Notes: generated by a model from the sequence alone, not told the origin. A stretch of DNA of 36,540 bases from a virus (IMGVR_UViG_2874920711_000014), one strand, 5' to 3'. Shown: positions 34,703 to 36,540, counted from the first letter of the stretch. Program-made: numbers and translations.

Positions 34703-35606
34703 ATGTCTGTAGTGATATCAGGTGCGCTGACTGATGGCGCAGGTATCCCATGTCCGGATACCATATTATTCTGAAATCCCGGGTAAACACCCGGAAGTGG
34801 TTATGCACACTGTTGCTGATGTGATGACAGGAAACGATGGTGAATACTGTTTCCATGCGCGGACTGGAAAATATGGTGTGTATCTGAAACAGGACTGGCG
34901 CAACGAGTACAACGTTGGCGACATTGCTGTATATGAGGACTCAAAGCCCGGCACGCTGAATGACTTTCTGATTGCTCCTGATGAGGGCGACCTGAAACCG
35001 GATGTCGTCAAACGCTTTGAGGAAATGGTGGCGCAGGCGCAGCAGAGCGCCGGGGCCGCAGCCGGAAACGCACAGCAGACGGCGCAGGATGTGGCGGCAG
35101 CCGCAGGTTATGCCCGCGCAGCAGAACAGGCCAAAAATGACATTGATGCTGCGCTGACCGGCACTCTGAAAACGGCTAACCATCTGTCTGAAATCGCAGC
35201 AGCAGGCGAAAAGGCACAACAGAAGTCCCGGGATAATCTGGGGCTGAAAAGTGCAGCCACGATGGAAGCACAGAGCGACATTTACGACCGGACAAAAGGC
35301 CGTCTGGCGATACCCGGCGCATTCGGCTTTGGGCGTGCTTTTCTGCCTGAAGATGTTATCCGTTTTGACACTAAGAGTGATTTCCTGGCCTGGGTAAGGA
35401 ATGCGCTGCCAAGTGAATATTCCGTTGCTGGCCCTACGACATCATCATACCCGACACACGGTTTGAAGGGGTGCTCAGCATCCGGTGGACTGATGCACGC
35501 CCTGAGACAACAGAACCGAGGTACAGAGCCAAATCCCTTACTTTTTACGGCATTAACGGCCCCATTTATCACACCCGCTACTGCTACTGGCCCATATCCA
35601 GACTGA
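34703..35606 (+). CDS. Side-tail-fibre-like protein (lambda Stf N-terminal domain), frameshifted near 34765
   Basis: ATG ~34703 (MSVVISGALTDGAGIPCPDT...), then track ORF 34734..35606 with ...IAVYEDSKPGTLNDFLIAPDEGDLKPDVVKRFEEMV... followed by an Ala/Gln-rich stretch. Confidence 0.55.
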
Positions 35607-35966
35607 CTGGCTGGGTGAAAATAAATATAACCACAGAAGATATTATTTACAGAATCGTGGCGAGCTCTGTCCGCAACAGATGGGGAGACCCTGACATTGG
35701 CGGGCTGATTATTGCTGCGTACCAGGGAGAAGCTGACGGTGATAAAGTCATCAGACTTGTCAGGGGCAGTCATACAGAGGCTCACGACTGGGACCGGTGG
35801 GGATTTCAGTGCCCAGTACTCCCACCGGAACGTATATAGCATCCCCACAATTTTTCATTACGGGATGTTCAGAGCATTCATTACCGGGGTCATATTGCGC
35901 CCTGTCCGGGGGCCGGATACATATGTCTCTGGCGCAATGCTTGGGCTTTTTATTCGCACATCGTGA
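35417..35966 (+). other. Possible tail-fibre C-terminal (receptor-binding) module spread over three frames
   Basis: Track ORFs 35471..35839, 35712..35966 and the start of 35797..36540 overlap. Frame with ...LTFYGINGPIYHTRYCYWPISRLTGWVKINITTEDIIYRIV... is open from ~35417. Confidence 0.3.
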
Positions 35967-35976
35967 GGAATGCACC

Positions 35977-36540
35977 GTGGAAATTAAAAAAATCATTAAT
36001 CCCCGTTATACCGAAAGTGGCGCAGTAGACTGTGACGTTTTTTTTGACGACAGGGACCAGGCAGTCCCCTACACAGCCACCGCTGATGATGTCGCTTCGA
36101 CGGGTCAGCAAATCTGGCAGGAACTGCAAAGCGGCAAATGGGGTGAGATAGCCCCATTCACTGTGACACCAGAAATGCTGGAAGCGGCCAGAGAGGCCAG
36201 ACGTCAGGGAATTGAAGCATGGCGCACAGAACAGGAGGCGAAGCCGTTCACGTTTGAATGGAACGGTCGTATCTGGAATGCTGGCCCCAACTCACTGGGC
36301 CGCCTTTATCCGGTGGTAATGGCTGCGAAATCCGACATTGTACGGGACGTGATGACGTGGGGTGATGCCGATAATCAGCAGGTGAAACTGTCGATGCCGG
36401 AACTGGAAGAACTGGCGGCAGCAATGGCTCAGGCACAGGTTGAGCGCAATGACGAGATTTATCGCCGTCAGCGGGAGCTGAAGGAAGAGCTGAATAGTCT
36501 GAAGGATTTGAATTCGGTTAGGAATTTTATCGTGGAATAA
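35977..36540 (+). CDS. Hypothetical protein downstream of the second fibre cassette (possible non-canonical chaperone)
   Basis: GTG at ~35977 with Shine-Dalgarno tgaggaa; ...WNGRIWNAGPNSLGRLYPVVMAAKSDIV... ending ...EIYRRQRELKEELNSLKDLNSVRNFIVE. Lacks the C-terminal WP motif of the Tfa at 34134. Confidence 0.3.
   Translation: MEIKKIINPRYTESGAVDCDVFFDDRDQAVPYTATADDVASTGQQIWQELQSGKWGEIAPFTVTPEMLEAAREARRQGIEAWRTEQEAKPFTFEWNGRIWNAGPNSLGRLYPVVMAAKSDIVRDVMTWGDADNQQVKLSMPELEELAAAMAQAQVERNDEIYRRQRELKEELNSLKDLNSVRNFIVE

Follow-up and report, generated by a model that had tools for sequence, protein, structure and literature searches.

A tandem tail-fibre cassette with a putative DUF4376-type chaperone in a decayed prophage, and the apparent breaks in its reading frame

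Genes at the right end of the window

The window analysed here is a 36,540-nt stretch of viral DNA (IMGVR_UViG_2874920711_000014), and the locus of interest forms its right end, where two tail-fibre cassettes follow one another on the forward strand. The ORF list and the raw sequence place the end of a 181-codon ORF at 34679 and the next ATG at 34703, leaving a 23-nt intergenic gap between the Tfa gene of the first cassette, whose end the earlier note had placed correctly, and the second fibre gene. The list likewise agrees with that note in having everything on one strand and in the window closing on the last stop codon (36540). The features are as follows:

31453–32895, minus strand: IS110-family insertion sequence splitting the 5′ portion of the first fibre gene, with the extent of that gene taken from the EIEC annotation (PF01548, 1e-48; PF02371, 1e-21)
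32896–34131, plus strand: first fibre gene, body and C-terminus (Gp34_trimer-type; PF21446, 1.1e-7; alignment to S. dysenteriae 1012)
34134–34679, plus strand: Tfa-type tail-fibre assembly protein, 181 aa, assigned as chaperone of the first fibre (PF02413, 2.4e-26; PHROG 136, 9e-60; 74% aa identity to phiP27 L55)
34703–35966, plus strand: second fibre gene, 422 codons after five 1-nt restorations (PHROG 2636, 9e-203)
34703–34976, plus strand: N-terminal Ig-like ‘collar’ anchor domain of the second fibre, aa 1–92 (PF08400 match up to aa 131, ~nt 35093)
34998–35270, plus strand: Ala/Gln-rich helical shaft, aa ~100–190 (AF2 helices at 100–160 and 162–179; low confidence, monomer)
35334–35963, plus strand: C-terminal alpha/beta module, presumed receptor-binding domain, aa ~212–422 (AF2 pLDDT mostly 74–90)
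35977–36540, plus strand: putative DUF4376-type intermolecular tail-fibre chaperone, 187 aa (PF14301; PHROG 1141; 78% identity to phiP27 L57)

Neither gene of the second cassette is confined to this window. A megablast search of the segment 34680–36540 against complete E. coli genomes matched ten genomes, the best being enteroinvasive (EIEC) strains, at 96–97% identity and with at least 98% of the query aligned. In the EIEC genomes, the segment is annotated as two intact genes, encoding a ‘prophage tail fiber N-terminal domain-containing protein’ (421–422 aa) and a ‘DUF4376 domain-containing protein’.

Once its frame is corrected (see below), the second fibre shows a modular build. Residues 1–131 match PF08400 (2.3e-70). 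Among solved structures, the protein is similar to the collar domain at the N-terminus of Ur-lambda Stf (9e7m, 7e-16) and to gp40, which forms the collar spike in the Vibrio myophage XM1 (7kjk, 8e-6). The lambda Stf-type N-terminal domain that the earlier note had recognized from 34703 onwards is thereby borne out. PHROG 2636 (‘tail fiber protein’) covers the fibre end to end, including the C-terminal module that had been left unassigned. An AF2 model made on a 98%-identical homologue (P0001; mean pLDDT 68.7, shallow alignment) has a confident beta-sandwich at residues 1–90, a long low-confidence helix, and a mixed alpha/beta domain at residues 212–422; low confidence is expected in the helix, given that one chain of a trimeric coiled coil was modelled on its own. 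In the columns of the homologue alignment, the shaft ends in a conserved joint motif (LSEIA...NLGLKSAA).

Homologues of residues 182–422 stand behind three kinds of N-terminus, namely PF08400, the P2 gpH-type PF12571, and a third without a Pfam match, at 36–54% identity. A profile search with the C-terminal module across 1.84 billion representative proteins returned 82 clusters (50% identity) at E ≤ 1e-30 and 121 at E ≤ 1e-10, with full-length matches always reaching the C-terminal residue of proteins 250–1070 aa long. The module had no convincing match among solved structures, and NCBIfam holds no model for either the fibre or the DUF4376 protein. Judged by its distribution, we presume the module to be a portable receptor-binding domain linked to DUF4376.

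The ORF that follows starts with a GTG at 35977, 10 nt past the fibre stop, and its Shine-Dalgarno sequence (GAGGA) overlaps that stop, a placement that would suit translational coupling with the fibre gene. The earlier note regarded this last ORF as non-canonical and as lacking the usual Tfa motif, of which only the second point stands. The ORF belongs to a catalogued family, matching PF14301 over residues 70–174 (2.2e-15; 57.5 bits, with the cut-off at 25) and PHROG 1141 (1e-86), and has 1786 homologues, the majority 187–188 aa long. The Pfam search gave no PF02413 (Caudo_TAP) match, and hhalign comparison of DUF4376 with Tfa alignments gave a probability of 0.4%, indicating no relation. DUF4376 has been called the conserved C-terminus of Mu Tfa (PMC7882524), a statement that the negative hhalign result did not reproduce.

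The structure of this protein was approached by sequence search against PDB chains, with no real match, and by an AF2 model (pLDDT 67.6, shallow alignment). In this model, three strands at the N-terminus are accompanied by beta-hairpins and by a long helical core, an arrangement compatible with published accounts of DUF4376 chaperones. Foldseek comparison of the model with the PDB gave no confirmation, returning nothing at E < 0.05 and retrieving neither Mu Tfa nor the T5 and K1F chaperone domains, the intramolecular chaperone folds to which the DUF4376 fold has been likened (PMC10579305). Published work describes DUF4376 proteins as a class of fibre chaperones: gp27 is needed for active tail fibres in the Alteromonas myophage V22 (PMC7289586), the V22 and A5 chaperones have been modelled as trimeric caps over the fibre knob (PMC10579305), and the H-fibre of Campylobacter CJIE1 is functional only with its downstream DUF4376 gene (PMC7882524). 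What had been suggested to be an uncharacterised adhesin/chaperone pair thus falls within a described class, and family membership together with these precedents indicates that the ORF at 35977–36540 is probably the chaperone of the second fibre, of a DUF4376 family distinct from the lambda/Mu Tfa proteins.

The pairing of the two genes is itself conserved. A DUF4376 gene lies directly 3′ of the C-terminal module in every context looked at, comprising five independent genomic contexts: the EIEC prophage, phiP27 (L56/L57), Rac-SA53 (tail3/tail4), HP1-like prophages (L004–L007), and the virulent phage Av-05 (gp76/gp77). Across the same loci, the DUF4376 proteins share 36–80% identity (65–80% among prophages and temperate phages), compared to 31–48% for the fibre modules. 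This bears on whether the DUF4376 protein might instead be a permanent distal subunit or adhesin that touches the receptor, like T4 gp38 or a bound Mu Tfa. The family name in PHROG is ‘tail fiber protein’, a model of caps at the tip of the fibre has been put forward (PMC10579305), and, according to work cited in PMC7882524, Mu Tfa remains on its fibre; but a protein in contact with the receptor would be expected to vary more than the module that it accompanies, and the opposite is seen. A folding-helper role fits this conservation better than that of a receptor-contacting adhesin, and we regard a permanent subunit as unlikely.

Frame breaks in the second fibre gene

As it stands in the window, the second fibre gene is not a single reading frame. 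Past 34703, coding appears to hop between frames (34734–35606, 35471–35839, and 35712–35966), and the earlier note had accordingly described a Cys/Trp/Tyr-rich stretch in three overlapping frames at 35417–35966. Alignment to CFSAN029787 (L003) resolves 34703–35966 into one gene split by five 1-nt deletions, the missing bases falling after 34746 (C), 34789 (C), 35431 (C), 35762 (G), and 35911 (T). The stretch 35417–35966 is simply the 3′ half of this gene, its frame shifted by the last three deletions. With the five bases put back, a 1269-nt ORF results, encoding a 422-aa protein almost the same as the EIEC protein. Its C-terminal 192 residues contain three Cys, five Trp, and 13 Tyr, with no notable Cys or Trp richness, and a novel Cys-rich adhesin was therefore rejected as a product of reading the wrong frames. 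A point against a purely homopolymer-driven loss is that the base missing after 35911 (T) lies beside a G run and outside any homopolymer.

The same kind of indel recurs at ~45 sites over the whole prophage in the window, relative to CFSAN029787. We counted homopolymer runs by type in the EIEC reference, scoring each as shortened or not in the window:

G/C 4-mers in the reference: 9 of 93 shortened in the window
G/C 5-mers in the reference: 14 of 24 (58%) shortened in the window
G/C 6-mers in the reference: 3 of 4 shortened in the window
G/C 7-mer in the reference: 1 of 1 shortened in the window
A/T runs of at least 4 in the reference: 0 of 157 shortened in the window

Base loss that is restricted to G/C runs and depends on run length is a technical signature. 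GenBank record CP026824.1 is identical to the final 8618 nt of the window, and in this record sitA, uspF, and nifJ, just beyond the window, are also broken up. These three genes are intact in two independent assemblies, S. dysenteriae 1012 (L009) and AMJQ01000052 (L010), which also contain all five of the bases missing from the fibre gene. The two assemblies come from near-identical strains (99.7–99.9% identity in flanking genes), and both carry a genuine 4-bp slippage deletion, the CTGG of CTGGCTGG (window 35607–35610), leading to a stop at 304 aa; this deletion is absent from the window.

These relatives offer some comfort to the alternative that the fibre gene is a true multi-frameshift pseudogene in a dead prophage, decayed in the manner typical of Shigella, with no assembly error involved. 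The prophage is plainly defective here, with IS insertions and a deletion; the two relatives have a real deletion that cuts the protein at 304 aa; and database entries for the fibre gene include many truncated ones. However, all five indels are 1-nt losses within or beside G/C runs, the ~45 sites show strong dependence on run length with no A/T run hit, chromosomal genes just beyond the window are fragmented in the same record while intact in relatives, and every one of the five bases is seen in two independent assemblies. We therefore consider decay by mutation a quite improbable account of the five breaks. The comparison indicates instead that they are errors of assembly CP026824.1 rather than mutations. 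The corrected 422-aa fibre has no exact match in the protein collection, so that intactness of the gene in this strain is argued from its relatives. As a caution, coding in three frames that looks exotic was produced by systematic loss of G/C homopolymer bases in a single public assembly, an artefact that counting runs by length is enough to expose.

A recurrent four-gene block in a decayed prophage

Two more G-run deletions, after 33001 and after 33918, fall in the first fibre gene. That a second fibre cassette stands in tandem with the first, as the earlier note had it, is borne out by other elements, with the order fibre, Caudo_TAP gene, second fibre, DUF4376 gene common to phiP27, Rac-SA53 (tail1–4), HP1-like prophages, and the intact EIEC prophage. 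In phiP27, an Stx2e phage (AJ298298/NC_003356), the block (L54–L57) has the same layout at the right genome end, just before attR, and in Rac-SA53 it sits just before attB and uspF; in the HP1-like prophages, both fibres of the block have PF12571 anchors. Nucleotide similarity to phiP27 begins within fibre 1, lapses at the divergent C-terminal module, and returns across the DUF4376 gene, with 74–84% identity in the aligned segments (fibre-1 C-terminus, Tfa gene, Stf N-terminus, and DUF4376 gene). The receptor-binding module of L56 differs, with no more than 31% identity, in a protein that at 490 aa is also the longer of the two.

This sharing does not extend to the baseplate. A tblastn search of the baseplate proteins of this prophage type against phiP27 found no match for any of them, and sequence matches relate the prophage sheath to gp31 of the Pseudomonas phage E217 (1e-17) and the baseplate wedge to E217 gp44 (6e-25) and XM1 gp16 (3e-10). 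Given that the block is shared with phiP27 while the baseplates are not, the two cassettes appear to move together between unrelated contractile tails, which fits the suggestion of a host-range module from another phage. From these comparisons we take the locus to be a known, recurrent, and mobile two-cassette host-range module (fibre plus Tfa, and fibre plus DUF4376) that is already catalogued. The singularity that the earlier note saw in the second cassette, as opposed to a standard stf-tfa pair, is largely refuted by the note's own test: full-length homology to phiP27 L56/L57 and 96–97% DNA identity to the EIEC genes place both genes among known ones, while the last ORF is indeed DUF4376 and no ordinary Tfa.

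Nothing at the locus resembles an inversion switch of the kind known from the Mu G segment, the P1 C segment, and the e14 P segment; the Mu-style switch had been discounted in the earlier note as well. Both cassettes are on the plus strand, and a search for inverted repeats as crossover sites found only 16–28 nt imperfect pairs at chance level, none flanking a cassette. In CP026824.1 and relatives, sitD, sitC, sitB, and sitA come next on the opposite strand, followed by uspF and ompN; neither a serine invertase (Gin/Cin/Pin) nor any further tail gene is among those following the DUF4376 gene, and an inversion switch was ruled out on this basis. Past the block, phiP27 has just one small ORF and then attR. 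A promoter and terminator scan of 32900–36540 found sites at chance level.

The earlier suggestion of an adjacent-prophage remnant, such as a lambdoid stf-tfa leftover from a different neighbouring element, could draw on the lambda Stf-type N-terminus next to a contractile tail and on the IS-rich surroundings, but is scarcely credible considering that the four genes form an unbroken series in which 23 nt separate the cassettes, that the same order closes phiP27 (at attR), Rac-SA53 (at attB), and the intact EIEC prophage, and that CP026824.1 shows no other set of phage genes further on.

The prophage itself has suffered in this strain. The IS110-family element in the first fibre gene is missing at the corresponding position in CFSAN029787 and S. 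dysenteriae 1012, an IS block at 23017–27352 stands in place of ~4 kb of tail genes (L003 15993–20024), and IS630, IS30, and IS3 copies make up most of the window's first 13 kb. With fibre 1 interrupted and ~4 kb of tail genes replaced, the prophage is dead in this strain and would be unable to build tails, and the fibre-chaperone pair is a genetic fossil here, probably kept because it adjoins the sitABCD cargo, which is under selection. A different EIEC strain has just the Tfa, fibre, and DUF4376 genes and sit left, beside an IS1.

Proposed role and comparison with known systems

Taken together, we consider it very likely that the locus represents the late-operon end of a decayed temperate myophage, encoding a trimeric side fibre and its cognate DUF4376 chaperone, with frame breaks that are assembly errors. 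In this reconstruction, the two genes would close the late (tail) operon in a sitABCD-carrying prophage located beside uspF/ompN in Shigella and EIEC, with a sheath and baseplate of the Pseudomonas E217/Vibrio XM1 type. The 422-aa product of the first gene would form a trimeric side fibre comprising an Ig-like anchor, a helical shaft, and a ~210-aa PHROG 2636 receptor-binding module, with the Ig-like N-domains docking the trimer onto the virion. The DUF4376 protein, by analogy to V22 gp27, would cap the fibre tip and aid trimerisation of the C-terminal module. Judging from gene order, the late operon of an intact relative would express both fibre sets, providing two receptor specificities together; we infer that both fibre types are carried at once because the cassettes lie in one operon without a switch.

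The site at which the second fibre would dock is more speculative. In lambda, the Stf N-domain assembles into a 12-mer collar around the bare tube, at the gpV–gpM junction (PMC12617516), and homologous domains, both solved, bind the neck in XM1 gp40 (PMC10457771) and cyanophage A-1(L) gp82 (PMC10966104). The terminator protein of the prophage matched XM1 gp5 at E 0.74, a weak hit, and two other neck-region proteins gave no relevant match. By analogy with these phages, it is conceivable, albeit doubtful, that the Stf-N fibre of such enterobacterial temperate myophages is a neck (collar) fibre with a specificity distinct from that of the Tfa-dependent baseplate fibres, and that the ~210-aa module is a new receptor-binding fold. 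Should the fibre indeed sit at the neck, the virion would combine Tfa-dependent baseplate fibres and DUF4376-dependent neck fibres of different specificities. The docking site of a lambda-type collar anchor on a sheathed tail and the receptor of the PHROG 2636 module are both relevant to host-range engineering.

Among named systems, lambda (Ur-lambda) Stf shares the N-terminal PF08400 collar domain with the second fibre. The lambda Stf/T4 gp37 tip is unrelated to the distal domain seen here, in which neither a related tip nor Phage_fiber_2 repeats were found, and the lambda helper is a Caudo_TAP Tfa, whereas the helper gene here is DUF4376. Furthermore, a contractile tail does not offer the lambda attachment site, which lies on bare tube, in the form that lambda uses. 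The second fibre also resembles XM1 gp40 and A-1(L) gp82 in its Ig-like N-terminal domain, a homologue of the one by which they bind the neck, but the distal part of gp40 is a tailspike-like domain and that of gp82 a chain of beads, both unlike the module here.

The downstream DUF4376 gene is shared with Alteromonas V22 (gp26/gp27) and A5 (gp8/gp9), a likeness drawn from family membership and published descriptions. The myophage V22 has more than one type of fibre and a baseplate gene of the DUF2612 type, and fibres and chaperones of the V22/A5 type travel jointly among unrelated phages (PMC7289586, PMC10579305); the V22 and A5 fibre heads belong to other families and serve other hosts than those here. 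Finally, the Mu G segment (S/U, S′/U′, Gin) similarly places two neighbouring sets of fibre and chaperone genes in the service of host-range breadth. The Mu sets are switched by an invertase, whereas the cassettes described here lie on the same strand with neither inverted repeats nor invertase, and simultaneous expression of the two would be expected.

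Base losses in G/C runs and other indels

Compared with its EIEC and S. dysenteriae relatives, the window between 13036 and 36540 carries ~45 single-base deletions, nearly all of which fall within runs of G or C (e.g., at 15969, 17026, 18119, 19398, 20558, 28644, 33001, and 33918). The frequency of deletion climbs with the length of the G/C run, while A/T runs are spared, and these run-linked losses therefore produce a false frameshift in nearly all prophage genes of the window. A similarly broken-up appearance was noted in the chromosomal genes sitA, uspF, and nifJ, located just past the window end in CP026824.1, the record identical to the last 8618 nt of the window.

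Two further indels were observed in the comparison with EIEC, neither of which is a homopolymer loss, and these may be real mutations:

Indels of other kinds in the window, relative to EIEC
17704-17714: 11-nt insertion in a head-region gene, forming a near-tandem repeat around TGGCGATGTGG
29858: 4-nt loss in a baseplate gene, within a GTCAGTCA repeat

The second fibre is cut to 304 aa in S. dysenteriae 1012, and also in another draft assembly (AMJQ01000052), by a 4-bp deletion that removes one unit of CTGGCTGG (equivalent site in the window, 35607-35610). This deletion is genuine, and some Shigella lineages thus show true decay of the second fibre gene, through a lesion that differs from those in the window.

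Insertion sequences and loss of tail genes

Insertion sequences (IS) occupy positions 1-13000 of the window almost throughout, and two further insertions lie among the tail genes:

Insertion sequences in the window
1-13000: IS630-type (DDE_3), two copies
1-13000: IS3-type integrase-core ORFs
414-1850: ORF in which an IS630 transposase runs into a phage integrase fragment
2539-3690 and 9548-10699: IS30-type, two full copies in opposite orientation
23017-27352: 4.3-kb block with IS3-family and IS30-family transposase genes
31453-32895: IS110-family element that interrupts the first tail-fibre gene in its 5′ part; its transposase is encoded on the minus strand

The 23017-27352 block stands in place of ~4 kb of tail genes in the EIEC CFSAN029787 prophage (L003, 15993-20024), comprising the sheath end, the tube, the tape-measure/lytic transglycosylase, and the start of a baseplate protein gene; the prophage is therefore unable to build a tail. 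No IS110-family element occurs at the equivalent site in EIEC CFSAN029787 or S. dysenteriae 1012.

The double cassette and the right end

A single protein family, PHROG 11571, was matched by the products of both the Tfa gene (34134-34679), whose N-terminal part aligns to profile positions 19-103, and the DUF4376 gene (35977-36540), whose DUF4376 part aligns to positions 83-213. As one profile matches both proteins, these alignments suggest that natural hybrids exist, joining a Tfa-like N-terminus to a DUF4376 C-terminus.

Just after the DUF4376 stop codon, 13-41 nt past the window end (8631-8659 in CP026824.1), lies a perfect 9-bp inverted repeat, GCGGCACGT ... ACGTGCCGC. The stretch holding it separates the phage operon from the convergent sitD, and the repeat may represent a shared transcription stop or a piece of an old attachment site. 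The double cassette (fibre, Tfa, second fibre, DUF4376) is likewise terminal in Rac-SA53, in phiP27-like prophages, and in sit-carrying prophages, the loci compared being Rac-SA53 51961-51986, L001, and L003 (EIEC CFSAN029787). Given that uspF adjoins both Rac-SA53 and the prophage of the window, the comparison suggests a common integration site or a common right arm.
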